NCBI GenBank assembly: GCA_964016885.1
Contig: OZ024756.1
Coordinates: forward strand, 2,914,001-2,978,000
Direction: 5' to 3'
Origin: Eledone cirrhosa
Lineage: Eukaryota
Length of the DNA: 64,000 bases
Part shown: positions 1-58,890 of the stretch, piece after piece
Position numbering within the stretch: position 1 is the first letter of the stretch
How the letters are laid out: each line of letters begins with the position of its first letter
Notes under the pieces: generated by a model
Told to the model about the DNA's origin: nothing
Database searches by the model: none
What the model saw: only the letters and a program-made list of their open reading frames with translations
Position numbers and translations under genes: made by a program

Positions 1-1988
1 ACCCTGCAACAACTCCAACTTCCGCAGCAGTGGCTCTAGAGTTATTACATACAGAAGGGAGGAGAGAGGGCACCCCTGTCGGATGGACCGCGCGATTTCG
101 AACGGCTCCGAGAGGTAGCCCTTCATCTTGACCCTAGAGAAGATGCGGCTGCTGTGCATGGCATTGATCCAGCCCCTGAAAACGGGTCCGAAGCCTGCCG
201 CCGCTAGCACCGCATCCAGGTAACCATGGTCGACCATATCGAATGCCTTAGATTGATCCAAGTTGATCAGGGCCCCACCAAAGCCGGGTTCGTTCCCAAC
301 CCTCTCTATGATGTATCGCATGAGGTGGATGTTGTCGTGGATGGACCTGGACGGGATAGCACATGTCTGCGCATCTCCCACCAGGTTGCCCACGACAAGC
401 GCTAACCTCTTTGCTAGCACCTTGGCCAAAATCTGTAACTCTGTATTTAGCAGAGTTATGGGCCTGAAATTATTTATATCGTCCCCCTTGTTCTCGTCCT
501 TCCTCACTAGCGTGACTACGCCCTTGGTCACAGCACAGGGAATTCTCCCGTTCTGTTGCCAGTTGCAGTAGACCGCCTCGAGGAGATCGGAGAACAAGTC
601 CGGCATAGCTAGATATAGTTCGTATGGAAGACCATCGAGACCCGGGGATTTGCGTTTGCCGCATTGGCTCAGCACGTCCTCTATCTCAGCGGCTGAAATC
701 GGCTCCTCGCAGGACTTCGCCTCCCTGTCCGAGAGACGCAGCAGGCCGTCGAGGTATGGACCGAAGTCCACATCCCCAACCGGCCCCCCACCCCTTCCGA
801 ACAATCCGGCAAAGTGCTTTTGAAAAGCCTTGCACATCTGCTTAGGTTCAATGATCACCCGTCCATCCTGGTCTCGCAAAGACCAGATAGTGGATTTGCT
901 CCCTCTTTTGGCTTCTGTCATGCGGGCCCAGCTAACAGCTTTGGTCCCCTCGTTTCCCAGAGCACGTATTTTGCTTCGGACGATGCAGCCTTCGTTTTTC
1001 GCGTCGAAGAACTGGCCCAGGGCCGTTCTAGACGCTAGCACTCTGGCCACGTCGCCGCTTCTAATTGCCTCTTCTACACTATCTACCAACTCCCTTTCCT
1101 TCCTATTTCTATTTGAGGCTAACTCCTTACTAAATTCTATAGAGACTACTCTAATCTCTCTTTTGAGAGATACCCACCACCTGCTGTTGACGATGGCGCC
1201 CGTCAACCGCTCCTTAACTAAAGTGCTAATCCGGTCCCTGTAAGCCTTACTTGCCGGTAAGGACAAGTTGAGCTTCCAGTAACCGGGTCCCTGTCTATGA
1301 GTTCTGTCAAGGTTGACCATGCAGGTCACTAATTTGTGGTCTGAATAGCCAACCATGCGCATTTTTGGACAACTTAAAAAGTCCTTATCCTTAATTCTAA
1401 CTAAGAACCTATCTAGGTACGACCTCGATGATCCGCTACGATTTGCCCAAGTCCAGGTTGGCGCAGTCGGAAAATCTAGTCGATATCTATCGGCCAGGTC
1501 AAATCGACCGATTAACCCTTTGAGGCTATTACACCCCTCTCTATCGGGACAGGCCCCTACGTAGTCCCAGCGTGCATCTAGGATACCATTCCAGTCCCCC
1601 ACTAATAGCAAGGAGCGGGATGTCCCTAGAAATGTCTCCAGACGATGGAAGAAGTCCGGCCGCATTGACCCGAAAGGGCCGTAGGCGGCTACCAACCTAA
1701 ACGCTCCGCCTTTACCACTGCCAAGGTCCAGAACCACTAGTCGACCCTCCGGGTCCAAATGTACCATCTGTGTTGCGAGACCCAGATGTTTTTGCAGCAG
1801 AACGACAACCCCACCCCCACCTCCGGGCTGACAGAGAGATGCGTGCATCTCAAAGTCATCAAAGGTGGGGGCCAGCTGTCGCACGTTGCTGATCCGGGCC
1901 TCGCAAATAACCATCACATCTATACGTTGTGACCTGAGGTCATTTAGAAGCATTGCTTGCTTCCAAGTTCAGCCCAGGCCACGCGCAT
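1..1988 (-). mobile_element. 5'-truncated L1/Tx1-type LINE, ORF2 portion (APE endonuclease + N-terminal RT), running off the left edge
   Basis: Colinear with ORF2 of the 43672-49299 element at the same offset (45317) at both ends. Encodes GDWNG, SYLDRF, SDHK, PGYWKLN, FRPITLLN, DQSKAFD, QGCPLS. Homology stops at 1988, in ORF2 codon ~10, and abuts (AGAT)n. In-frame TGA at 1969-1971. Confidence 0.95.
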
Positions 1989-2065
1989 AGATAGATAGAT
2001 AGATAGATAGATAGAAAATGAGGATTGGAGATAGTGAGACTAAAAGAGCGAAAGGGATATATATT

Positions 2066-13322: not shown

Positions 13323-15768
13323 AATTAACCCTTGTTGTCTGGTAATCTGAATATACTGCTCCTGAAATTAACCCCTGTTGTCTGGTAATCAGAATATACT
13401 GCTCCTGAAATAAACCCTGTTGCCTGATAACTAGAATATACTGCCCCTGAAATTAGCCCTGTTGTCTGGTAACCAGAATATACTGCCACTGAAATTAGCC
13501 CTGTTGTCTAGTAACTAGAATATACTGCTCCTGAAAATAACCCCTGTTGTCAGATAACTAGAATATACTGCTCTTGAAATTAACCCTTGTTGTCTGGTAA
13601 CTAGAATATACTGCCCCTGAAATAAACCCTGTTGATTGATAACTAGAATATACTGCTCCTGAAATAAACCCTGTTGTCAGATAACTAGAATATACTGCTC
13701 CTGAAATTAACCCCTGTTGTCTGATAACCAGAATATACTGCTCCTGAAATAAACCCTGTTGTCTGGTGACTAGAATATACTGCTCCTGAAATAAACCCTG
13801 TTGTCAGATAACTAGAATATACTGCCCCTGAAATAAACCGTTGTCTGGTAACTAGAATATACTGCTCCTGAAATAAACCCTGTTGTCTGGTAACTAGAAT
13901 ATACTGCTCCTGAAATAAACCCTGTTGTCTGGTAACTAGAATATACTGCTCCTCAAATAAACCCTGTTGTCTGATAACTAGAATATACTGCTCCTGAAAT
14001 TAACCCTGTTGCCTGATAACCAGAATATACTGCTGCTGAAATAAACCCTGTTATCTGGTAACTAGAATATACTGCTGCTGAAATAAACCCTGTTGTCTGG
14101 TAACTAGAATATACTGCCCCTGAAATTAGCCCTGTTGTCTGGTAACCAGAATATACTGCTCCTGAAATTAACCCTGTTGCCTGATAACTAGAATATACTG
14201 CCCCTGAAATAAACCCTGTTGCCTGATAACTAGAATATACTGCCCCTGAAATAAACCCTGTTGTCAGATAACTAGAATATACTGCTCCTGAAATTAACCC
14301 CTGTTGTCTGATAACCAGAATATACTGCTCCTGAAATAAACCATGTTGTCTGGTAACTAGAATATACTGCTCCTGAAATAAACCCTGTTGTCAGATAACT
14401 AGAATATACTGCCCCTGAAATAAACCCTGTTGTCTGGTAACTAGAATATACTGCTCCTGAAATAAACCCTGTTGTCTGGTAACTAGAATATACTGCTCCT
14501 GAAATAAACCCTGTTGTCTGGTAACTAGAATATACTGCTCCTCAAATAAACCCTGTTGTCTGATAACTAGAATATACTGCTCCTGAAATTAACCATGTTG
14601 CCTGATAACCAGAATATACTGCTGCTGAAATAAACCCTGTTGTCTGGTAACTAGAATATACTGCTGCTGAAATAAACCCTGTTGTCTGGTAACTAGAATA
14701 TACTGCTGCTGAAATAAACCCTGTTGTCTGGTAACTAGAATATACTGCCCCTGAAATAAACCCTGTTGATTGATAACTAGAATATACTGCCCCTGAAATT
14801 AACCCTGTTTTCTGATAACCAGAATATACTGCTCCTGAAATAAACCCTGTTGTATGGTAACTAGAATATACTGCTGCTGAAATAAACCCTGTTGCCTGAT
14901 AACTAGAATATACTGCCCCTGAAATAAACCCTGTTGATTGATAACTAGAATATACTGCCCCTGAAATTAACCCTGTTGTCTGATAACCAGAATATACTGC
15001 TCCTGAAATAAACCCTGTTGTCTGGTAACTAGAATATACTGCTGCTGAAATAAACCCTGTTGCTTGATAACTAGAATATACTGCCCCTGAAATAAACCCT
15101 GTTGATTGATAACTAGAATATACTTCCCCTGAAATTAACCCTGTTGTCTGATAACCAGAATATACTGCTCCTGAAATAAACCCTGTTGATTGATAACTAG
15201 AATATACTGCCCCTGAAATTAACCCTGTTGTCTGATAACCAGAATATACTGCTCCTGAAATAAACCCTGTTGTCTGGTAACTAGAATATACTGCTGCTGA
15301 AATAAACCCTGTTGCCTGATAACTAGAATATACTACCCCTGAAATAAACCCTGTTGATTGATAACTAGAATATACTTCCCCTGAAATTAACCCCTGTTGT
15401 CTGATAACCAGAATATACTGCTCCTGAAATAAACCCTGTTGTCTGGTAACTAGAATATACTGCTCCTGAAATAAACCCCTGTTGTCTGGTAACTATAATA
15501 TACTGCTCTTGAAATTAAACCCTTGTTATCTGGTAACTAGAATATACTGCTCCTGAAATTAACCCTGTTATCTGATAACTATATATACTGCTCCTGAAAT
15601 AAACCCCTGTTGTCTGGTAATCAGAATATACTGCTCCTGAAATAAACCCTGTTATCTGATAACTATAATATACTGCTCCTGAAAATAACCCCTGTTGACT
15701 GATAACCAGAATATACTGCTCCTGAAATTAACCCTGCTGTCTGATAACCAGTATAACCTGAAATTAAC
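13323..15768. repeat. 42-bp minisatellite (aaataaaccctgttgtctggtaactagaatatactgctcctg), ~58 units
   Basis: Continuous tandem units with occasional 43-bp variants. Confidence 0.97.
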
Positions 15769-18738: not shown

Positions 18739-19371
18739 CTGTTCCAGCGGACCTCCCTCGACGTTCTCCGGGTAATGCATCAACCATCCTGTCGGCCGGA
18801 ACCTAGAGGTGCAGTGGCTGTTCCAGTACGCTACCCTCACCGTCCTCCGAGGTAATGCATTCTCCAATCTGTCGGCCGGAACCTAGAGGTGCAGTGGCTG
18901 TTCCAGTACGCTACCCTCACCGTCCTCCGAGGTAATGCATTCTCCAATCTGTCGGCCGGAACCTAGAGGTGCAGTGGCTGTTCCAGTACGCTACCCTCAC
19001 CGTCCTCCGAGGTAATGCATTCTCCAATCTGTCGGCCGGAACCTAGAGGTGCAGTGGCTGTTCCAGTACGCTACCCTCACCGTCCTCCGAGGTAATGCAT
19101 TCTCCAATCTGTCGGCCGGGACCTAGAGGTGCAGTGGCTGTTCCAGTACGCTACCCTCACCGTCCTCCGAGGTAATGCATTCTCCAATCTGTCGGCCGGG
19201 ACCTAGAGGTGCAGTGGCTGTTGAAGTATGTCTCCCTTACCGGCCTTCAGGACAATGTATTCTCCATCCCGTTGGCTAGACCCATGAGGTAGAGTAGCTG
19301 TATCAGCGCGTCTACTTCACCGTCCTCTGCGGCAATACATTCTCCATGCTGTCAGCCGGGACCCAGAGGTG
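18739..19371. repeat. 80-bp GC-rich tandem repeat, ~8 units
   Basis: acctagaggt recurs at 18801, 18881, 18961, 19041, 19121 and 19201, with diverged versions at 19281 and 19361. Confidence 0.97.
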
Positions 19372-26729: not shown

Positions 26730-27417
26730 TGAAGATGTTTCTGTCTATTTAACCTCATCCGTGTTATATAGTCTAACCAAGGCTTTCGAGCAGTTCTTGA
26801 AGATATTTCTATTTATTCGTCCTCATCAGTTTATTATAGTTTAACCAAGGATGTCGGACAGCTCCTGAAGATGTTTCTCTTGATGTAACCTCATCAGCGT
26901 ATTATAGTTTAACTAAGACTGTCTAGAATCGCCTGGGGATGTTTCTTTTTATTTGACCTCATCAGTGAAATATAGTTTAATCAAAGCTGTCGAGCAGCTC
27001 CTGGCGATGTTTCTCTTTATGTAACCTCATCAGTGTAATATAGTCTAACTAAGGTTGTCGGGCAACTCACGAGTATGTTTCTGTTTATTTGACCTCATCA
27101 GTGTAATGTAGTCCAACCAAAGCTGTCGAGCAGCACCTGGGGATGTTTATGGTTATGTAACGTCGTTAGTGTAAAATAGTTTAACCAAAGCTGTCGAGCA
27201 GCTCCTGGAATTGTTTCTGTATATGTGACCTCATTAGTGTAAAATAGTCTATTCAAGGATACCAGGCACCTCCTGAGGATGTTCCTGTATATTTGACCAC
27301 ATCAGTGTAATATAGTTTGTCCAAGGCTGTCGAGCAGCTCCTGGGACTGTTTCTGTTTATTTGACCTCATCAGTGTAATATGGTCTAACCAAGGCTGCCA
27401 GACATCTCCTGAAGATG
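26730..27417. repeat. 68-bp tandem repeat, ~10 diverged units
   Basis: cctcatc recurs at 26753, 26821, 26889, 26957 and onward, period 68. Confidence 0.95.
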
Positions 27418-28084
27418 ATTCCAAGTAGAACCGAAACTCAAATCAAACTATTCATCCTGTCCAACTTATGGAGAAATAAGAAAATAGAACGTTTGCATAG
27501 TTTCTATATAACAATACGTCCATGTTTGTCTACACATATGACATATAAGATATATATTGACACAGCTTCCGAGGTATATATTGATATATTTGTGGGGAGG
27601 GTATATGAAATCAAAGGAATCGGTCGTCAAATTGGACCGAGGAGACAGTCTCCAGGACCCGATTTATAGCTGATACTTTATCGTTTTTCCGGTGATGGGA
27701 GTCGGGTATTTGAAGTCAGAACATACAAATCCAGAACAGACACTACAAATAATCTCTCTACCCCCTCCGGACTATTTGACCAATCAACTAATCCGCCAGC
27801 TGTGGACTGGTATATCGGACAATGGACTGGTCAAGTAGCATGTTAGTTTGTTTGTTTTGTTGTATTTTGTTATATGAGAAGAGGTTGACAGGACCTCACT
27901 TGCTCAAAATTTCTCTGTGGTCAGTTTTCTTCCAGGACCCTTCACCTTAGGGCAACATGTCTGATACACAGACGTAGGGAGACAGGAGAAAAGGAGAAGA
28001 AAAAAGAAACAGAGAAAGAGAGAAAAAATGAGAGAGAGAGTTGAGAGAGAGAGTGAGTGAGAGAGAAACACAGAAAGAGAGTAA

Positions 28085-29713: not shown

Positions 29714-29775
<62 letters not shown>

Positions 29776-29782
29776 TAATAAT
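29714..29782. repeat. (AAT)n microsatellite, 3' flank of the Tx1 element
   Basis: Direct inspection. Confidence 0.97.
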
Positions 29783-30032
29783 GATTTCTTTATTAACCAC
29801 AAGGGTCTACATAAAGTAGACATTAAGGACAGTGCAGGACAATACAGTACGGTACAAATGGGCATTTCTCCGTGTAAAAAACAAAAACAGAGGATGTAAC
29901 AAAAAAATAACAATGAAAAATTCCCCAATAGAGGGGAGACTTCGGAGGGACATTTGTGGAGAAAGCCCAGTAAAAGGCCACAGTGACCCCACCACCAAGG
30001 CAAGTGCCCTCTCCCAGTTTTCCACCTTTAAT

Positions 30033-32251
30033 TTACAGATATATACTCAGAGTAGGCCCATTCACTCGGGCCATTCTTGCTTCTCTCACCCATCTTTCAA
30101 CAAAATCCTGGGAAGAGAGCACTTCCCTCTCTACTCTGATTTTCCTTTTCAAATGAAATTTGAAAAAGTCAATCAGGGCATCACCGAAGAGGTAAGTGCT
30201 CGTCTTCAGCCCTTTCAAACGTGTCCACCATACTACCTCTTTCGCCATGGCCACCAGACAGATAAAAACTGCCTGCCCTTCCCGGCTAAAGGAAGAGGGC
30301 GGGGCAATCCTCACGATGGACTCAGATGATAGCCGGATCCGTCCTATACGCGACAGCAGGTGTTCGACATAAACAGGGCAGATGTCGCTGTGCATGGCAG
30401 CAATCCAGCCTCTGAAGACGGGCCCAAAGCCAGCCGCCCTCAGGACTGCCGCTAGGTAACGATGCTCGACCCTATCGAAGGCTTTCGACTGATCTAAATT
30501 GATCAAAGACCCACCCGTGCCAGGTTCCCTAGCTACCCTCTCTACGATGTATCGCATGAGGTGGAGGTTCTCGTGGATGGATCTGTCGGGAATGGCGCAT
30601 GTCTGCGCCTCTCCCACCAGACCACCAACGACAAGCGCCAATCGCTTTGCTAGCATCTTGGCCAAAATTTTGAACTCTGTGTTTAGCAGAGATATGGGCC
30701 TGAAATTATCTATGTTATCCCCCTTGTTCGGATCCTTTCTCAGCAGTGCCACCGCTCCTCGGCTCACAGAGCTGGGAATTCTCCCGTTCTGTTGCCAGTT
30801 GCAGTAGACGTCCGCCAAGAGGCCTCCGAACAAGTCTGGCATCTGTACGTAAAGTTCATAGGGCAGACCATCCAAACCAGGCGGTTTACCCCATGTGCAG
30901 CGAGTCATTGCCTCCCGTACTTCAGCGGCTGTTATCGGCTTTTCGCAACACTCCGCCTCAGTGGCCGAGAGCCGCGGCAGTCCGTCGAGGTAGACACTAA
31001 ACTCCATCCCTCGACCCGGCCCACCGCTGCCCCCGAACAGCTGAGCGAAGTGTCGCTGAAAAGCTTCACACATTTGCCCGGGATCGAGTAGCATGCGCCC
31101 GTCGTGGTCCACCAAAACCGGATCGTGGCTTTGTTGCCACGACGCGCCTCCGCCACTCGGGCCCATTGAACGGCTTTCGTCCCCTCGTGTCTGAGAGGAC
31201 GCACCCTAGCACTGACAACGCAGCCTTCGTGCTTTGCATTGAAGAATTGGTCAAGGGCCAATTTCGCCGCAAGCACGTCGGTCGCGATGCCTTTGCTAAG
31301 CGCCTCGTCTAATTTTCTAACTAGTTCTCCCTCTGCTCTATTTTTCTCTATTGCTAAAGCCTTACTAAACCTAATGGATTCTATTCTAATCGTTCTTTTC
31401 AGAGCAAACCACCACTTGTTGTTGACGATGGCCCCCGTCAACGCCCGCTTAACTAGTTCGCTAATCCGGTCTCTGTAGGCCTTGCGCGCTGGTAAGGACG
31501 CGTTTAGCTTCCAGTAGCCGGGTCCTCGTCTATGAAGCCTATCTAAGTCAAGCACACAGATCACGAATTTGTGGTCCGTGTAGCTGACTATCTTGAATTG
31601 TGGACAGCCTATGCTAGCTCTATCTATTTCCCTACAAAATACTTTATCTAGATATGATCTGGATGACCCTATGCGATTTGTCCAAGTCCACATTGGCACA
31701 TTCGGGAAATCCAATCGGTACCTGTCAGACAGTTCAAAACGCCTGAGCAGGTTGGTGAGGCTGTTGCACCCTCCACCCCTATCCGCTAATCCCACACAGT
31801 CCCAGCGTGCATCTAAGATCCCGTTCCAGTCGCCCACTAACACTAAAGAGCGGGACGTTCCAAGAAAGGTCTCCAGACGCCGGATGAAATCAGGCCGCCC
31901 TGCTCCTGTCGGGGCATAGACAGCCACTAGCCTGAAAGCTTGCCCGTCTCCGCTGGTCACGTCCAGCACCACCAACTTACCCTCTGGGTCCAGGAAGATG
32001 GCCCGTATGGCGAGATCCAAACCTCTTCGAAAAAGCACAGCAACTCCTCCCCCCGATCCAGGACGGCTGGGAGATGCGTACACATCGTAGCCGCCGAAGA
32101 TCGGTGCGAAGGCCCGTGCTTCGGAGATTCTGGTCTCGCTGATGGCCACTACATCTATGTTTAGTGACCTGAGGTCGTTGAGCAGGTGACCCTGCTTCCA
32201 TGACGAGCCCAAGCCACGCGCATTTATGCTGCCTATTCTGAGTAAGGTCAT
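30033..32251 (-). pseudogene. Tx1 ORF2 pseudogene (APE intact, RT truncated)
   Basis: ORF 30932-32251 (SINARGL, GDWNG, YLD, TDHK, PGYWKLN) frameshifts near 31120 into ORF 30033-31166 (PGLDGLP, FRPISLLN, DQSKAFD). It then jumps to the C-terminal YVEHLLSR with no QG/YADD motifs or zinc finger. Confidence 0.93.
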
Positions 32252-32286
32252 GTTTAAAATGGAGTGGAAAAGATGGGAAAGACCAC

Positions 32287-34316
32287 TTACCGTACTTTTC
32301 GTAGAGGAAGGATGGTTTCTCCATCCCTTTTCACTTGATCGTCTGGTGAAGGGACCGTTGAATCGTCCCTTCGGCTGGTCGTCGGCTCTTCTATGAGTAT
32401 GTCCGAATATACTCTCCGGTTGAGAGTCCCTCCTAGGTCTCTGAAATCACCAACTGCGTTGGGGAATTTCGTTTTTATGTTTGTGTATTGTTTCTGTGCT
32501 ATTTTTACCAGTCTTATGTACGTTGGCGTTTTGATTGGTGCTGCTATTATGTAGTCGTGCTGTGAAATGTCTGTGTGTTCAATTATGTAAGTCATTAGTT
32601 TCTTGTTGTGTGTATTTATTGCCGTGCATTTGTTTTTCTGGGGGTGGGGTGTGGTTCTGCTATTTTCTTGTCATTGTTGCTGGGTGTGTGTGTTTTGTTG
32701 TTGTGTTTGCGATGTTGGTGCTTGTGGTGGTGGTGTTGAAGGTGTTGTTGTTGTTGGCGGTGGGGTTGTCGCCGGTGGTGATGGTGGTGCTAGTGTGGGT
32801 GGTGATGGTGTTGGTGGTGTTGCTGCTGTGAGTCTCTTTGCAGTAGCCTTTACCCTTTTTTCATTTCTTTCCTCCCTTTTCGAAGGCGACGATGCGCTGC
32901 TTCTGCGTTTGTGCCTTCTTACGACCTTTTGCCATCCCTCTCCCTCTCACACTCCATGTCTGATTCTGTGAGGTCGGGGAGTGGCACCAGCTCCACTCTT
33001 TCACTTGTTGTTGTTGGTGCTGTTTGCAGTGGAGTCTCTGTTGCAGCTGCATTTGGTATAACTGTTGTTATTGTTAATACTTCCACTGCTGCTGCTGTTC
33101 TTGATTTCCGTGGCGTGGGTATGGGTGCCACGGAGCTTTCGTTCCTGGTTGCCGCTTGTCCTGTTGCTGGTAGTCGTGGAGCCGGTTTCGGAAGGACGGT
33201 GGTTTTCTCCTTTCTCAGGGTCTTCTCGTTGCAGAAGGCTCTGAGGTGAGTCTTCGATCCACAGCGAAAGCATTTCGGGCGTTTGCCCTCAACACTTATA
33301 GGCAGTTGAGTGCCGTTATCGAAGTCTATCACATCCGGGATAGCTTCGATGCACTCCTGGTTGGTTTGGATTAACATCTCAATGGAGGTGCCGACCCAAT
33401 CTTCTCTTACTTTTTTCTGTACTTGCAGTACAGTTGTTTTGTCCTCGATTCCGACGAGGACAGACGCGGCCAGCCAAGAAGGGGCCATCCTGGGGGGGAC
33501 GTGGGTCAATTTGACCCTCACAATTTTTTGCCCGCACTAGGAGGGCACCAACACCATTTCCTCGCTCCTTAGGGCCACTAAGGATTGAGCCTTTGCCTCC
33601 TGGGGTGTGGCAAAAAGCACATCTACGGTGGCATATTTCTTGCCTCGGGTGATATGCGTTTTCTGCTGCCACACAGACCCTAAGGCTTTTTGTATTTGAG
33701 CCTCTGTGGCTCTTTCAACCCTACGGGATTTTGTGCTTACTGTACGGTACGTGACCGTACAGTGCTGTTGGGTTTCGAAAAATGTTTCGGCTGCCTTGCA
33801 GATTACTCGGTGTCCGGTTTTCGTCACCATCTTCTTCGCTTCCTGTAATTCCTCATTTGTTATGAGGATGGTTTCCAGGTTCTTTGCGATACCTGCAAAC
33901 GAGATTGGTTTTTCTTTGCTACTGTTGTTGTTGTTGTTGTTGTCGTCAGAGCTGCTGTTACTTTTGTTGTTGCTGCAAGTACTACGACTACTGCCGCCGC
34001 CGCTGTTGCTGTGGTTGTTGTTGTTGTTGTTGCTGCTGCTACTAATGCTGTTGTTGTTTATGCTGCTGCTGATGCTGTTGCGGCTGCTACTGTTGTTTTC
34101 CTTGCCACTGTTGCTGCTGCTGCTGCTGCTGTTATTACGGCTGCTACTGCTATTATTCATGACGTCAGACGAATGAAATGGGTTTTCGTATTTCCCGCAC
34201 ACCTTTTTCGTCGTTGTCGCCGTCGTGGAGAAATGTTCCTTGATTTGCACGTGATTTTGTAAACTATTTTTCTTTACTGGCGTCGCTTGCGAAAGAGAAG
34301 GTAGGGAGAGAGACAC
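32287..34316 (-). pseudogene. Tx1 ORF1 (gag-like, CCHC zinc knuckle) pseudogene
   Basis: Segments 33537-34316, 32919-33521 (same frame, TAG between) and 32287-32595. CFRCGSKTHLRAFC knuckle preceded by VEGKRP, as in the intact ORF1. Frameshift near 32945. True start codon uncertain. Confidence 0.88.
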
Positions 34317-34641
34317 ATTTAGAGAAGGGAGGGAGAGAGACGATCTTCTCTCTGCTGTAGTGACGATTGAGAAGAAGAAGACGGAATGAGTGGGAGTGAC
34401 TTGTGAAAATTCTTTTTCGCAGCCATGTTTTTTTTGGGTTTAAAATAAATATTGGGCACAAAACCCCAATAAGCGGTTATTTAAGCTCGAAGGGCCAAAT
34501 AACGGGCAAAAAGACCCCTCTCACGAGGAGGAGGGTGTTTTTATCTACAGTTTAGTTAAAGTTTTTAACAATTTACAATTGTTATAGCGGTCAAAATTTA
34601 CAATACCTTTCAGAGCCGAGCCTCCGTCAACCATGGCATTC

Positions 34642-34732
<91 letters not shown>

Positions 34733-43611: not shown

Positions 43612-43671
43612 TACAGACAGGCAGACAGAGAGACTGACAAACAGACAGAGTGACTGACAGACAGACAGACA
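42143..43671. repeat. (GA)-rich tract with a ~50-bp unit (gacttgagagaaagatatgaagagagagacgtgagagtgaga), grading into (GACA)n
   Basis: About 14 copies of gagaaagatatgaaga within 42390-43080. Confidence 0.92.
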
Positions 43672-43895
43672 AATTTCTGTTTATTTGCCACTAGGGCACA
43701 AAAGAAAGGGACATGTACATGGGTGGGGGGAGTTTACATAAAAATCGAGTAAGAAAAATATAACAAACAAAATAATAACAAGAAGGTCCTCAATAGGGAG
43801 GGATCGTTTTGGGGTCACACACACCCCCGAAAAAAAGTGTGCGACCCTTCTCCACGGGAGCACAAAGAGAGGGTGCTCCCTTCTTTCTGTTCCAC

Positions 43896-46800
43896 CTACA
43901 GGCTGAGGTAGAGAGAAGGCCCATTCACACGGGCCATTCTCGCAACTTTCACCCACCTTTCATAAAACTGGCTGGAGTGGAGCACCTCTCTCTCCATCCT
44001 GATCCTTCTTCCGAAATGGTATCGGAAGAAAAGGACCAGTTGTTGGCCGGAGAGAAAGGTGTCCGACCTCAGCCCTTTCAGACGCGTCCACCATATAGCC
44101 TCTTTTACCATGGCTATTACACAGAGGAAGACCGCCTCTCCTTCATTTTTGAAGGGGGGAGGCGGCTTGATCGTTACAATGGACTCGGTGGTCAACCTAA
44201 TTGGTCCCACCCGTGACAGCAGTCGTTCGACATAGCCCCACAGATCGGCAACGCCCGGGAAGTGCACCAATGCGTGCGCGACGGTTTCCTCGTCGCGCAC
44301 GCATCTGGGACAGATCTTTTTCGAGGGGTCCCTACCCGGGCGCCCGTGTCTGTAGAGCTTATCCCGAATGGGCAGAGCACCTCGGTAGCACTGCCAGGCC
44401 AAGGACTTCTGGAAGTTGTCCATAGGTCCCGGGCCGAAAGTCCTACCGAATAGGCTGGCCAGTTCGTCCTCCTCCATGCCTAGGGTTTCTCCGAGGGCGT
44501 CGTCGCACCCGCTAACCACCAGCCCTCTATAGAATGACGAGGTGGAGTCTCCGTCGATAGCCGGGTCCGCCTTCCAGAGAGCCGTGAGCGCCTGGGCACA
44601 CTCGGTGTGCCAGTCGCCCAGTTTTCTCGGTCTTTGCTTCACCCAGGACTGCAGCTCGGTGAGCGAGACGAGCCTCGGGAAGGCTCGCCTCACAAACGGG
44701 GCCCACACCGGTTGACCGGTGAGGAATACGTGGAGGTGCCTTAGCCTCAATGCGTGTTTACGCATTTTTAGCCACGGCATCCCCAGCCCTCCTTTCAAAG
44801 GGTTTTGACAGCAGATGGATCTCCTCACCAGAGGAGACCTCTTCTTCCAAAGGAAATAAAAGAGGGCGCGCTCCATTTTGGCGAGGATCTCACCCGGGCA
44901 AGGCACGACAGTCAAGCGGTAATAGATGACGGACGCTATGTAAGCATTCGCCACCTCCGCCCGACCTTTTAGGGATAGTTTGCACTCGGCCCACTTCTGG
45001 GTCAGTGCAAACACCCTATTCGTCACCTCACCCCAGTTTTTCTCCACCTGGAGGTCCGGTCCGAACCAGACCCCAAGCAACTTCACCGGGCCCTCCGTCC
45101 ACCGTCCGACGATACCGTCGCACGACATCGCTTTGCCCCTCCACTCGTCGAGTTGCAAAGCGACTGACTTGTCCCGGTTCAGCTTAGCCCCTGTCAACCT
45201 TTCGTACTCCTCTAGTAAGGTGCCGATTGCCTCGATTTCCGAGGCGGTCGACACCATTACTGTTACGTCATCGGCGTAGGCCGACACCGCTTTGCGCAAT
45301 CCCGGTTCCAAAGGGATGCCCTGCAACAACTCCAACTTCCGCAGTAATGGCTCGAGAGTCAACACATACAGAAGGGAGGAGAGAGGGCACCCCTGTCGGA
45401 TGGAGCGGGTGATTTCGAACGGCTCCGAAAGGCAGCCGTTCACCTTGACTCTAGAGCAGATGCGGCTGCTGTGCATGGCAGTGATCCAGCCCCTGAAAAC
45501 AGGTCCGAACCCAGCCGCCGCTAGCACCGCATCCAGGTAACCATGGTCCACTCTATCGAACGCTTTAGACTGATCTAAATTTATCAGGGCCCCACCAAAG
45601 CCGGGTTCGTTCCCAACCCTCTCTATGATGTATCGCATGAGGTGGAGGTTGTCGTGGATGGACCTGGACGGGATAGCGCATGTCTGCGCATCTCCCACCA
45701 GGCCCCCCACGACAAGCGCCAACCTCTTCGCTAACACCTGCGCCAAAATCTTTAACTCTGCATTTAGCAGAGTTATGGGCCTAAAATTACTAATGTCATC
45801 CCCCTTGTTTTCGTCCTTCCTCACTAGCGAGACTACGCCCTTGGTCACAGAACAGGGAATTCTCCCGTTCTGTTGCCAGTTGCAGTAGACCGCCTCGAGG
45901 AGATCGGGGAACAAGTCCGGCATATTAATATATAGTTCGTAGGGCAGACCATCGAGTCCTGGAGATTTGCGTTTGCCGCATAGGCTCAGCACGTCCCCTA
46001 TTTCAGCAGCTGAGATCGGCCCGTCGCAGGACCTCGCCTCCCTGTCCGAAAGACGCGGCAGGCCGTCGAGGTATGGACCGAAATCCACATCTCCAACCGG
46101 CTCCCCGCCCCTCCCGAACAATTGGGCAAAGTGCCTTTGAAAGGCCTCGCACATTTGCTTAGGTTCAAGGATCAGCCGTCCATCCTGGTCTCGCAAAGAC
46201 CGGATAGTGGATTTAATCCCACTTTTCGCTTCTGTCACGCGGGCCCAGCTAACAGCTTTGGTCCCCTCGTTTCCCAGAGCACGTATTTTGCTTCGGACAA
46301 CGCAGCCTTCGTGTTTCGCGTCGAAGAACTGGTTCAAGACCGTTCTCGACGCTTGCACTCTGGCCACGTTGCCGCTTCTCATTGCCTCTTCAACATTAAC
46401 TACCAACTCCCTTTCCTTCCCATTTCTATCTGAGGCTAACTCCTTACTAACTCCTATTGAAACTACTATAATCTCTCTTTTTAGAGAGCCCCACCACCTG
46501 TTGTTGACGATGGCGCCCGTCAACTGCTCCTTAACTAAGGTTCTAATCCGGTCCCTGTAAGCTCTACTTGCCGGTAAGGACAAGTTGAGCTTCCAGTAAC
46601 CGGGCCCCTGCCTATGCGTTCTATCAAGGTGGACTACGCAGGTCACTAACTTGTGGTCTGAATAGCCCACCATGAGCATTTCTGGACAACTTAAAAAGTC
46701 CCTATCCTTAATTCTAACTAAGAACCTATCTAGGTACGATCTAGATTGACCACTGTTATTTGACCAGGTCCAGGTTGGTACAGTCGGAAAATCTAGTCGG

Positions 46801-47333
46801 TATCTATCGGCCAGGTCGAATCGGCCGATTAACCCCTTAAGGCTGTTACACCCCCCTCTATCGGGACATGCCCCTACATAGTCCCAACGTGCATCTAGGA
46901 TACCATTCCAGTCCCCCACTAAAAGCAAGGAGCGGGGCGTCCCTAGAAAAGTCTCCAGACGATGGAAGAAGTCCGACCGCATTGCCCCAAAAGGGGCGTA
47001 TACGGCGACAAGCCTAAAAGCTTCGCCTTCGCCATTGCCAAGGTCCAGAACCACGAGTCGACCCTCCGGGTCCAAGTGTACCGTCTGTGTAGCGAGACCC
47101 AGATGTTTTTGCAGCAGAACGACAACCCCACCCCCACCTCCAGGCTGACAGAGAGATGCGTGCATCTCAAAGTCATCAAAGGTGGGGCTTAGCTGTCGCA
47201 TGCTGCTGATCCGGGCCTCGCAAATAACCATCACATTTACACATTGTGACCTGAGGTCACTTAGAAGTTTAGCTTGCTTCCAAGGTGAGCCCAGGCCACG
47301 CGCATTTAGACAACCTACTCTTAAGACAGCCAT
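43896..47333 (-). CDS. LINE ORF2: APE endonuclease + reverse transcriptase + C-terminal zinc-finger region (1145 aa)
   Basis: CLNARGL, GDWNG, SYLDRF, SDHK; PGLDG, FRPITLLN, DQSKAFD, RQGCPLS, AYADD, LLGV; CPRC..ETVAHALVHF. Confidence 0.97.
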   Translation of the reverse strand: MAVLRVGCLNARGLGSPWKQAKLLSDLRSQCVNVMVICEARISSMRQLSPTFDDFEMHASLCQPGGGGGVVVLLQKHLGLATQTVHLDPEGRLVVLDLGNGEGEAFRLVAVYAPFGAMRSDFFHRLETFLGTPRSLLLVGDWNGILDARWDYVGACPDRGGCNSLKGLIGRFDLADRYRLDFPTVPTWTWSNNSGQSRSYLDRFLVRIKDRDFLSCPEMLMVGYSDHKLVTCVVHLDRTHRQGPGYWKLNLSLPASRAYRDRIRTLVKEQLTGAIVNNRWWGSLKREIIVVSIGVSKELASDRNGKERELVVNVEEAMRSGNVARVQASRTVLNQFFDAKHEGCVVRSKIRALGNEGTKAVSWARVTEAKSGIKSTIRSLRDQDGRLILEPKQMCEAFQRHFAQLFGRGGEPVGDVDFGPYLDGLPRLSDREARSCDGPISAAEIGDVLSLCGKRKSPGLDGLPYELYINMPDLFPDLLEAVYCNWQQNGRIPCSVTKGVVSLVRKDENKGDDISNFRPITLLNAELKILAQVLAKRLALVVGGLVGDAQTCAIPSRSIHDNLHLMRYIIERVGNEPGFGGALINLDQSKAFDRVDHGYLDAVLAAAGFGPVFRGWITAMHSSRICSRVKVNGCLSEPFEITRSIRQGCPLSSLLYVLTLEPLLRKLELLQGIPLEPGLRKAVSAYADDVTVMVSTASEIEAIGTLLEEYERLTGAKLNRDKSVALQLDEWRGKAMSCDGIVGRWTEGPVKLLGVWFGPDLQVEKNWGEVTNRVFALTQKWAECKLSLKGRAEVANAYIASVIYYRLTVVPCPGEILAKMERALFYFLWKKRSPLVRRSICCQNPLKGGLGMPWLKMRKHALRLRHLHVFLTGQPVWAPFVRRAFPRLVSLTELQSWVKQRPRKLGDWHTECAQALTALWKADPAIDGDSTSSFYRGLVVSGCDDALGETLGMEEDELASLFGRTFGPGPMDNFQKSLAWQCYRGALPIRDKLYRHGRPGRDPSKKICPRCVRDEETVAHALVHFPGVADLWGYVERLLSRVGPIRLTTESIVTIKPPPPFKNEGEAVFLCVIAMVKEAIWWTRLKGLRSDTFLSGQQLVLFFRYHFGRRIRMEREVLHSSQFYERWVKVARMARVNGPSLYLSL

Positions 47334-47356
47334 GTTGGTGGCAAAGAAAGAGGCAC

Positions 47357-49126
47357 TTACCTCTCTGCGTCCCGGGGTTCGGGTCGCTCAGTTTCCATGG
47401 GGCTGGTGGAGGGGTTGATGGGTGGGGTGGTGGTTTGTGGTGGTGTGGGGGTATTAGTGTGTGGAGGGGTTGGGATCTTTGGAGTTGTGTGGGTGTTTGA
47501 GGAGGGGAGGGGAAAGCCTTTCAGGAGGACGCGGTTGAGTGGCCTGGTGCAGGGTGGGCCCACGTCCTCAGGGTACATGTCTTTTAAAGTTTTGAAAATG
47601 TCAAGTGGGATTTTCACCATTTTCAGGTTAGGGAGCCCCATTGCCGTTACGAAATTCGGCCCTTCGGTTTGTATCGAAGGGTTGGTTTCTATTTTTAAAG
47701 TTAGGTTTTCATTGTTTTTGTTTATGTATGTGTAGAGTTTTTGTGTTGTTGTGTTTGTTTTTGCTTGTTGTTGTTGAGTGAGTTTGCGTTTTATTGTCTG
47801 TGTTGTGTTGTCAGGTGGGGTTATTTTTGTTGTTGTGGTGTGTGTACGTTTTTTTCTTTTCACTTTTTGGAAGGGAGCCCCCTCGTCTTCCGACGATATG
47901 AGCTCCTCTTCCGTATTGGAGGGGAGGGGTATATCTCCGGGTTGTGTATGAACTGTTTTTGTATTTGTGTTCTGTGGGGTGGGGCTGGGTGGGACCGTGT
48001 TTTGGGTTGTTTTCTTGAGCTGTTGTTGATGTTGTTGTTGTTGTTGTTGTGGTGGTGGTGGTGGTGGTGGTGGTGTTGTTGGTTTTTGTTGTTCTGGTGG
48101 AGATGGTAGTGTATTTTGTTGTTTTTGTGATGGTGGTGCTGGTTGTTTTTGTTGTTGTTGTGGTGTTTGTAGCAGTGGTTTTTTAGTTGTTAGTAGAGGG
48201 CAGGCCGTCCTCAGGTGACCTCTGCCAGCGCAGTGGTAACATGAGGGTCTCCTGCCTTCCACTGTGATATTTATGTAGGTTCGCCCATCCAGTAGCACTC
48301 GGTCGGGTATTCCGGAGATTCTCTCAGGTGTCATCTGTAAGAGAACCTCCGGACTTTTCCCGCCGAACAGTCCACTGGTGGACTCCCCTGCTGAAATTAG
48401 TATGTCCTTATCTAGGTCGGTAAATCCTGTTAGGACGGACCAGATGTTAATTTCTGGCGTAGGGCTCCACATTCTTATCCTTTGTGTTCTTCTTCCTTTA
48501 TATGTGGGGAAGAAGGTGTATTGTGGTGACACTATGGGTGCCACCGAATATTTCTGAGCCAGCATTTCGTCCTTCATTCGGACCATAATGCTGGCATACA
48601 GCTTTCCTCTTTGAATAAAGAGTATATCATTTTTAATTTCTTTAAGAACCAGCTCGATTTGACTTTCGGTCAATTGCGCTGGCTTTCTCGTTTCGTTGGT
48701 TATGGTTCTGAAGCTTACGGTATTCTTGTAAATCTGTTGACGTACTTCTTCTGGGGAGTTGATCGTAAAAGAACCATCCTCCCCAAAAGATACGTATTTT
48801 CTAGCCTCTAGCAAATTTTCCTTGGCGTTCGTGATGTCAATGGCTTTGTATTCCGTGGCTCTCCTGAGTGTTTGGGCAAAAGAAATTTTGTCTTTGTTTG
48901 TTGTTGTAATGTTGTTGGTTTCCTTATTTGTGGTGTTATTTTTTTCTTGAAAATTAATTTTTTCATTTGAATTGAAATTCTTTTTTTCATTGGAGAGGAG
49001 GGGTTGTTCAACAGTTTGAACTGTTGTTCCCTCTTTCCAGCTTGTTTTTTTGGTCGGCGTGGCGTTCGCTTCCAGTATGGCGATATCGTTTTCGACGATA
49101 TCGTTATCAACGATATCGATAAACAT
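47357..49126 (-). CDS. LINE ORF1: gag-like nucleic-acid-binding protein with a CCHC zinc knuckle (589 aa)
   Basis: CYHCAGRGHLRTAC (CX2CX4HX4C), P/Q/T-rich linker, basic KVKRKKR. Lies upstream of ORF2. Confidence 0.92.
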   Translation of the reverse strand: MFIDIVDNDIVENDIAILEANATPTKKTSWKEGTTVQTVEQPLLSNEKKNFNSNEKINFQEKNNTTNKETNNITTTNKDKISFAQTLRRATEYKAIDITNAKENLLEARKYVSFGEDGSFTINSPEEVRQQIYKNTVSFRTITNETRKPAQLTESQIELVLKEIKNDILFIQRGKLYASIMVRMKDEMLAQKYSVAPIVSPQYTFFPTYKGRRTQRIRMWSPTPEINIWSVLTGFTDLDKDILISAGESTSGLFGGKSPEVLLQMTPERISGIPDRVLLDGRTYINITVEGRRPSCYHCAGRGHLRTACPLLTTKKPLLQTPQQQQKQPAPPSQKQQNTLPSPPEQQKPTTPPPPPPPPQQQQQQHQQQLKKTTQNTVPPSPTPQNTNTKTVHTQPGDIPLPSNTEEELISSEDEGAPFQKVKRKKRTHTTTTKITPPDNTTQTIKRKLTQQQQAKTNTTTQKLYTYINKNNENLTLKIETNPSIQTEGPNFVTAMGLPNLKMVKIPLDIFKTLKDMYPEDVGPPCTRPLNRVLLKGFPLPSSNTHTTPKIPTPPHTNTPTPPQTTTPPINPSTSPMETERPEPRDAER

Positions 49127-49299
49127 TTCTCAAATATTTATTTTTCACCCCAAAAGGGGTGAAAATATATTTACCCGACGTCTAGAGTCCCAGACTAGAG
49201 GTTACAGTTAATTATACAAAAGAATTCAAAAAAATCCACTCACAAAATTAGCAGGTAAAAATCCAAATCACGGAGCGATACGAAACAAGTCTACTATCC

Positions 49300-49647
49300 A
49301 CAGACAGACAGACAGACAGACAAAAAGACAGACATACATACATACAAAGCTATATATTGGTAGTGTTTACGCATGAAAAGTATTTCGACATTACGTTATA
49401 CAGAGGGGGTCTTAGCTGCTAATTATGATTCAGTCAGACACACAGACATACAGACTGACAGACAGAGAGACTGACAGACAGACAGACAGACAGACAGACA
49501 GAGAGACTGACAGACAGACTGACAGACAGGCTGACAAACATATATACATATAACGCTATATATTGGTAGTGTTTACGCATGACAAGTATTTCGACATTAC
49601 GTTATACAGAGGAGGTCTGCTAATTATGAATCAGACAGACAGACAGA
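49300..49647. repeat. (GACA)n microsatellite with a duplicated ~85-bp insert (49350-49435, 49556-49635)
   Basis: tatatattggtagtgtttacgcatga.aagtatttcgacattacgttatacagagg occurs twice. Confidence 0.9.

Positions 49648-54885: not shown

Positions 54886-58890
<4,005 letters not shown>

Follow-up and report, generated by a model that had tools for sequence, protein, structure and literature searches.

A full-length Tx1-like LINE within a TCTG microsatellite of the cephalopod Eledone cirrhosa

Structure and affinities of the element

A full-length long interspersed nuclear element (LINE) of the apurinic/apyrimidinic endonuclease (APE) type, here termed E1, lies in a pre-existing TCTG microsatellite of Eledone cirrhosa and ends without poly(A). 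It is contained in a 64,000-nt stretch of contig OZ024756.1, called the window in the following, to which all coordinates refer. E1, which we class by proxy as Tx1-like, is 5,629 bp long and located on the minus strand (49300-43672), whereby its 5' end could lie 6 nt further out, at 49306. An initial annotation, made from the sequence alone, had described a full-length LINE with two open reading frames (ORFs), flanked on both sides by a TCTG repeat and devoid of a poly(A) tail. This description is confirmed by the junctions at 49301/49300 and 43672/43671 and by the two ORFs, both of which are open. All features are compiled in Table 1.

The first ORF of E1 encodes a single CX2CX4HX4C knuckle at residues 295-310, a weak match to zf-CCHC (E 0.068, below the Pfam cut-off), and a C-terminal half rich in Pro, Thr and Gln. 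ORF2 starts with an APE endonuclease (approximately residues 1-240, Pfam PF03372), followed downstream by a reverse transcriptase (RT; PF00078) at residues 512-756 with the motif YADD; a weak zf-RVT match is also present, and a Pfam domain search yielded no match to RNase H in ORF2. Its best sequence match in the PDB is L1 ORF2p (E 1e-49). E1 thus has the layout of the Tx1 clade, i.e. two ORFs, an endonuclease that precedes the RT in ORF2 and a (weak) CCHC knuckle in ORF1; typical Tx1 elements possess two ORFs, one or more CCHC knuckles in ORF1 and an ORF2 without RNase H.

The endonuclease of E1 carries residues which align with the catalytic set of the L1 endonuclease, for which PMC1950540 names D145 and H230. 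A structure predicted for ORF2 residues 1-245 (mean predicted local distance difference test score, pLDDT, 92.9) superimposes with a template modelling (TM) score of about 0.8 on both L1-EN and LTx, a chimera carrying the Tx1L loop. Compared to the endonucleases of Xenopus Tx1L and human L1 (PDB 2v0r and 1vyb), the predicted fold and the catalytic residues are shared, while sequence identity is only about 20%. The E1 endonuclease is hence, as far as the model goes, intact and L1-EN-like.

Matches to E1 among proteins comprise 90 full-length and 130 shorter ones (120 listed). Among the matches listed, the closest named proteins are both from cephalopods, one from Argonauta hians (63%), the other from Acanthosepion pharaonis (46%). 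Three window elements (E1 and its relatives E2 and E3, see below), 39 proteins and 36 of 72 metagenome loci, without named Tx1 and without vertebrate L1 elements, were placed in a quick RT tree (78 rows). Hereby, all three window elements cluster with the Argonauta protein and a pair of unnamed proteins in one set with a support of 100 in the Shimodaira-Hasegawa-like approximate likelihood ratio test (SH-aLRT); a 14-row set (SH-aLRT 100) adds the cuttlefish protein, and a 43-row set (SH-aLRT 98) takes in two APE elements inserted in U2 small nuclear RNA (snRNA), with plant L1 rows outside. The classification of E1 as an APE-type LINE that is Tx1-like by proxy is supported.

The 72 metagenome loci were obtained in a JGI scan from 157 pattern matches and are all distant (full-length matches of at most ~30%); in 27 of them, screened for TCTG runs of at least 14 nt at the element ends, none was found. 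No E1 relatives were found in viral contigs (81 stretches) or GTDB genomes (14 stretches), a search with the ORF1 core among longer proteins gave no match, and the ESM Atlas matches to E1 are solely unnamed RT/endonuclease clusters.

The initial annotation had further called the element young. Its intact ORFs agree with this, whereas the C-terminal zinc-knuckle of ORF2 carries Phe in place of the last Cys (44260), a position where the public sequence of four runs almost always has a different base. Three high-depth public contigs on ORF1 and the 5' untranslated region (UTR) differ from E1 at 3 of 201, 0 of 176 and 6 of 145 positions; for a further contig, of depth 119, the figure is 11 of 141. 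Judged from these comparisons, the E1 copy is recent, though not pristine.

Table 1. Coordinates of E1, its flanks and its relatives in the window
Feature	Position	Strand	Basis or remark
E1, full-length Tx1-like LINE	43672..49300	-	junction reading and within-window BLAST
E1 5' UTR, ~174 nt, AT-rich (35% GC)	49127..49300	-	
E1 ORF1, 589 aa, without stops	47357..49126	-	
E1 ORF2, 1145 aa, without stops	43896..47333	-	Pfam, PDB match, structure model
E1 3' UTR, 224 nt, closing on AATAAA-CAGAAATT, without poly(A)	43672..43895	-	
5' flank of E1, perfect (TGTC)5-TG run	49301..49322	-	
3' flank of E1, perfect (TGTC)4, then degenerate TCTG/TC array to ~43388	43656..43671	-	
Degenerate TCTG patches upstream of E1, within ~145-nt unit	49431..49647	-	
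Candidate 18-nt target-site duplication, left copy; length ambiguous inside repeat	49307..49324	-	right copy 43656-43673
E2, copy of a sister subfamily with its 5' truncation at ORF2 codon ~10 and one stop, continuing past the window edge	1..1988	-	
(TCTA)7 microsatellite at E2 5' truncation junction	1987..2015	-	
E3, older, disrupted relative with a stop in ORF1 and a frameshift in ORF2, lacking aa 627-1033	29783..34641	-	
(ATT)n at E3 5' junction	34642..34727	-	
(ATT)n at E3 3' junction, one mismatch in first 9 nt	29714..29782	-	

The TCTG locus and two related elements

Read on the element strand, the 5' junction of E1 runs ...TTTT(TGTC)5-TG, directly followed by TGGATAGTAG. At the 3' end AATAAA (43685-43680) and CAGAAATT (43679-43672) lead without an A tail into (TGTC)4, past which the sequence continues with AGTC and degenerate AGTC/TCTG/TC repeats; (TC)n starts ~65 bp downstream of E1. 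The perfect runs next to the element are short (22 and 16 nt). TCTG-type perfect runs of at least 12 bp account for 97 of 51,325 host bases (0.19%) in the window, and all five of them lie within 350 bp of the E1 junctions; likewise, the six host 100-bp windows (of 1,019) that show a TCTG density of at least 0.2 all flank E1. Degenerate TCTG patches are found as far as ~350 bp from E1 on the upstream and ~300 bp on the downstream side. Since neither a tail nor a duplication explains degenerate patches on both sides, the TCTG locus pre-dates the insertion.

The repeat phase differs by 2 nt between the two sides of E1, and a duplication or loss must therefore be hidden in the repeat. The longest candidate target-site duplication is the 18-nt direct repeat TTTGTCTGTCTGTCTGTC (49324-49307 and 43673-43656), which requires that six repeat-like bases are assigned to the 5' end of E1; otherwise the longest one measures 14-15 nt. 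A unit of ~145 nt occurs in two copies (86% identical) in the 5' flank (49300-49647), interleaved with the TCTG patches, and BLAST revealed no further copy elsewhere in the window. As a single locus, this arrangement shows where the E1 copy landed and provides no family rule.

BLAST within the window revealed two relatives of E1, namely E2 and E3. E2 shares 90.5% nucleotide and 87.6% amino acid identity with E1, with dS = 0.24 and dN/dS = 0.26 over 661 codons (dS and dN being synonymous and nonsynonymous divergence). These values led us to reject the view that E2 is a mere decayed copy of the E1 family and to treat it as a separate subfamily. Because E2 is truncated inside ORF2, the (TCTA)7 repeat at its 5' end cannot be element-encoded. 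E1 reads TCTAAATG at the place where E2 is truncated behind (TCTA)7, and the E2 junction may thus stem from a short TCTA/AT microhomology. E3 is more distant, with 60-72% amino acid identity to E1 in ORF2 and 31% similarity in ORF1; its 3' end reads AATAAA-GAAATC without poly(A), so that a terminal AATAAA..GAAAT motif is common to E1 and E3. The (ATT)n tracts flanking E3 correspond to a repeat class, (TAA), that PMC3812793 reports for Dong elements, which are described as abundant in O. vulgaris (PMC13282606).

In all three elements the 5' junction adjoins a perfect microsatellite of at least 12 bp. The background for a random host site is 0.133 for repeat units of 2-6 nt (0.0023 for three sites) and 0.036 for units of 3-6 nt, a post hoc statistic that assumes independence. 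Moreover, both complete elements have the identical unit on either side, TCTG in E1 and ATT in E3, and ATT runs make up 0.46% of the host DNA in the window. Of the (TCTG)n specificity proposed initially, the tie of the lineage to microsatellites therefore stands, whereas strict specificity is not supported, because (TCTA)n is the site of E2, a subfamily with 88% identity to E1 in ORF2.

Further repeats of the window are an (AT)n array of 4 kb, which holds an assembly gap of 200 N (56991-57190), and minisatellite arrays at 13323-15755 (period 42 bp), 18755-19371 (80 bp) and 26730-27421 (68 bp).

Site choice by E1 and its family

Parts of E1 occur in 11 public sequencing runs from seven studies with eight organism labels, three of which hold at least half of the E1 words. 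Four of 14 listed runs (X1, X12, X5 and X6) were compared with E1 over 43645-49345, without the 5' flank stretch 49292-49345; sequence depths in these runs were not taken as copy numbers. At 43655, where the 3' repeat of E1 first breaks, the base that continues (TGTC)n is found at a depth of 880 of 912 in X1 (16 contigs), in 10 of 10 raw reads (~7 starts) in X12, and at 462 of 597 in X5 and 283.5 of 286.6 in X6. The depth at this position is of the same order as that of family-specific 5' contigs (351-696 in X1; bin means mostly 10-45 in X12). The sequence data thus suggest a purer (TGTC)n past the 3' end of other copies. Record 8 of X1 (160 nt, depth 351), whose 15 unaligned letters after position 49291 would take it 6 nt across the junction, was not counted, since a 5' UTR variant could equally end the contig.

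The interpretation that we favour, with little more than even confidence, is that E1 likely represents a Tx1-like family of cephalopods which prefers insertion into (TCTG)n by target-primed reverse transcription. According to this model, the nick would be placed in the (CAGA)n strand by an endonuclease with a bias for sequence or shape, as it is exerted by Tx1L-EN at its own site, and transcription would not stop at AAUAAA, only 8 nt before the end of the element, but proceed into the UGUC repeats beyond. RNA cleavage takes place 10-30 nt downstream of AAUAAA. Base pairing of these UGUC repeats with the DNA end at the nick would then allow reverse transcription to begin within the repeats; as priming would occur within read-through repeats, no poly(A) would be copied. 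A staggered second nick would finally duplicate no more than ~14-18 nt, masked by the surrounding repeat, and (TCTA)n and (ATT)n would be targets to which sister subfamilies have moved. Individual steps have precedents in the literature: in vitro, Tx1L-EN nicks almost exclusively at its own site, and target choice by the endonuclease is influenced by the betaB6-betaB5 hairpin loop (PMC1950540), and RNA-DNA pairing aids priming in L1 and other elements (PMC3649969, PMC6007223).

Several observations weigh against this interpretation. The Tx1 membership of E1 rests on the U2-inserted, Keno-like proxies, since neither named Tx1 nor vertebrate L1 elements are part of the tree, and the host DNA in the window is generally microsatellite-rich, with 21.5% perfect repeats. 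In the predicted specificity loop, three of seven residues differ between E1 and E2, and 14 of 223 seven-residue windows differ equally; a divergence hotspot in the hairpin loop was accordingly discarded as unsupported. In the public data, the depth at 43699, within the 3' UTR, amounts to 46,060 in X1, 130 in X12 and 77,844 in X5, as opposed to 912, 10 and 597 at 43655 (13-130x), so that most related 3' UTR sequence lacks the TGTC continuation. Such sequence may belong to sister subfamilies or to E1-family copies with other ends; sister subfamilies with other UTR ends are indeed present among 24 of 2,864 loose-end rows, none of these 24 being located at the junction. In X6, where the depth at 43699 is 0, the contigs that include 43655 span no more than ~32 nt (the bin of 191 nt has a mean of 48.6); owing to this short span they may be bare microsatellites, a doubt to which X1 and X5 are partly open as well. 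Finally, the 3' repeat on its own fits an element-encoded tail equally well, and the 5' flank is known for one copy only of the E1 family.

Among the alternatives, we regard as rather unlikely, though less so than the others, that the choice is guided by the RNA. Here, a loose endonuclease would nick widely and UGUC at the RNA 3' end, either an encoded tail or read-through, would select the nicks that are primed, so that each subfamily keeps the repeat of its master copy. This would account for targets of E1 and E2 that are one base apart, while the 29 differences among 230 residues of their endonuclease regions are not clustered in the hairpin loop, and for the short distance from AATAAA to the repeat (8 nt in E1, 6 nt in E3). 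It would also be in line with reports that terminal microsatellites of RTE elements correlate with the insertion signature (PMC6007223) and that T-rich sites remain the landing places of L1 even when its endonuclease is relaxed (PMC3649969). However, the hairpin loop differs in each of six close relatives, and specificity in the Tx1 clade is ascribed mainly to the endonuclease (PMC4494074), for Tx1L on the basis of in vitro data (PMC1950540).

It is quite improbable, in our judgement, that the lineage merely has a general preference for T-rich microsatellites (TCTR, ATT), TCTG being simply where E1 happened to land. Three related elements at three different units, two of them (TCTG and TCTA) one base apart, and the prevalence of 3' UTR sequence without TGTC would be expected from such a relaxed preference. 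Yet none of E1, E2 and E3 resides in the AT, AC or ATGT repeats that are 7-60x commoner than TCTG in the window, E1 and E2 represent separate lineages under purifying selection, and where sequence extends to 43655, TGTC mostly goes on.

We consider it very improbable that there is no targeting at all, i.e. that the element itself encodes the 3' repeat as a tail and that the one at the 5' end reflects chance or a survival bias by which insertions into repeats are tolerated. The repeat richness of the genome and the small number of insertions (three) are compatible with this notion, and Drosophila Waldo-A/B have been suggested to accumulate passively (PMC3812793); against it stand the identical rare unit on both sides of both complete elements and the degenerate TCTG hundreds of bases out on either side of E1. 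A larger target, i.e. a dispersed repeat or a T-run/TGTC boundary instead of the bare microsatellite, is hardly to be expected, for although the ~145-nt unit occurs twice in the 5' flank, the 18-nt direct repeat starts at a TTT-GTC boundary and several Tx1 families aim at other transposons (PMC4494074), the unit is restricted to this flank within the window, the flanks of E2 and E3 are unrelated and the TT match may be fortuitous (1 in 16).

Relation to known families and implications

As the initial annotation had stated, microsatellite-targeting Tx1 families are known, and PMC4494074 and PMC3812793 bear this out for the teleost families Kibi, (TC)n, and Koshi, (TTC)n, citing Kojima and Fujiwara 2004. 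Like these, E1 is an APE-type LINE within a pyrimidine-rich microsatellite; unlike them, it has its junctions in (TCTG)n and a mollusc as host. By analogy, E1 would thus resemble the repeat-seeking LINEs of the Kibi/Koshi type, while its target places it outside those families. According to PMC4494074, the crocodilian families Tx1-1_Crp, Tx1-5_Crp, Tx1-6_Crp, Tx1-1_Gav and Tx1-2/3/5/8_AMi prefer (TTCC)n or (TTTC)n. They are similar to E1 in that related families occupy related units and the microsatellites are tetranucleotides, whereas E1 differs from them by a G in the unit, by sisters at TCTA and ATT and by intact ORFs. The same source speaks of microsatellite targeting if one repeat type is found in more than 20% of the flanks of a family; for the E1 family, the flanks at hand are one copy with TCTG on both sides and the 3' side in four public runs. 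E1 is likely a member of this kind of LINE known from fish and crocodilians, with a different unit and a different host.

Keno is a Tx1 element that targets U2 snRNA, with an A-rich tail followed by U2 (PMC4640811). Rfam analysis of 20 of the 72 metagenome loci located U2 behind L001 (4675-4885) and L008 (5815-5977), both APE-type LINEs whose A-rich tail is joined to the U2 snRNA at the same U2 position. These Keno-like loci share with E1 the 43-row RT set, the APE endonuclease and, in case of L008, CCHC knuckles in ORF1. In contrast to their A-rich tail and U2, E1 is flanked by a microsatellite, and the RT identity to E1 is ~37%. The same analysis located U1 snRNA (73.5 bits) at L017:9202-9356, ~1.4 kb past ORF2 of an APE-type LINE on a metagenome contig, which is possibly a U1-associated element; its first ORF has a GDSL-esterase-like match. 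GDSL/SGNH esterase-like first ORFs, mostly with CCHC knuckles, are also present in the L1-group loci L010, L011, L015, L018, L020, L026, L031 and L046.

For cephalopods, an "L1-Tx1" repeat class has been described (PMC13282606, PMC8967140), with target preference unmentioned in the respective passages; in O. vulgaris it comprises 80 families, of which 13 have recently been active, with 421 insertions (PMC13282606). The E1 family is probably already masked under this class and may already be catalogued. In the portions of the literature consulted, no TCTG-targeting and no cephalopod microsatellite-targeting Tx1 family was found, whereby Repbase, Dfam and Kojima and Fujiwara 2004 lay outside the search, and the target list (Fig. 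3) and the flanks (Fig. S5) of PMC4494074 may include further units, TCTG among them.

As a single locus, E1 is a modest addition to the list of known microsatellite-targeting Tx1 elements. The main remaining interest lies in a possible switch of targets between close subfamilies. A review of 2013 describes the way in which APE-type LINEs choose microsatellites as "not well understood" (PMC3812793). If each subfamily keeps its own unit, E1 (TCTG), E2 (TCTA) and E3 (ATT) would form a close natural series in which recognition by the enzyme and RNA-DNA pairing are separable. Going further, and with little confidence, one may speculate that octopod Tx1-like subfamilies have divided microsatellite classes among themselves, including a single-base switch from TCTG to TCTA within ~12% protein divergence, and that the target is inherited via the read-through repeat of the RNA and not via the endonuclease. 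An RNA-inherited target would then amount to a self-perpetuating, re-programmable choice of site, and the subfamilies to a natural series for what sets LINE specificity. If true, the preference for (TCTG)n would also extend microsatellite-targeting Tx1 elements to the cephalopods, in which the L1-Tx1 class is abundant and has recently been active, and would bear on the growth of their repeat-rich genomes.

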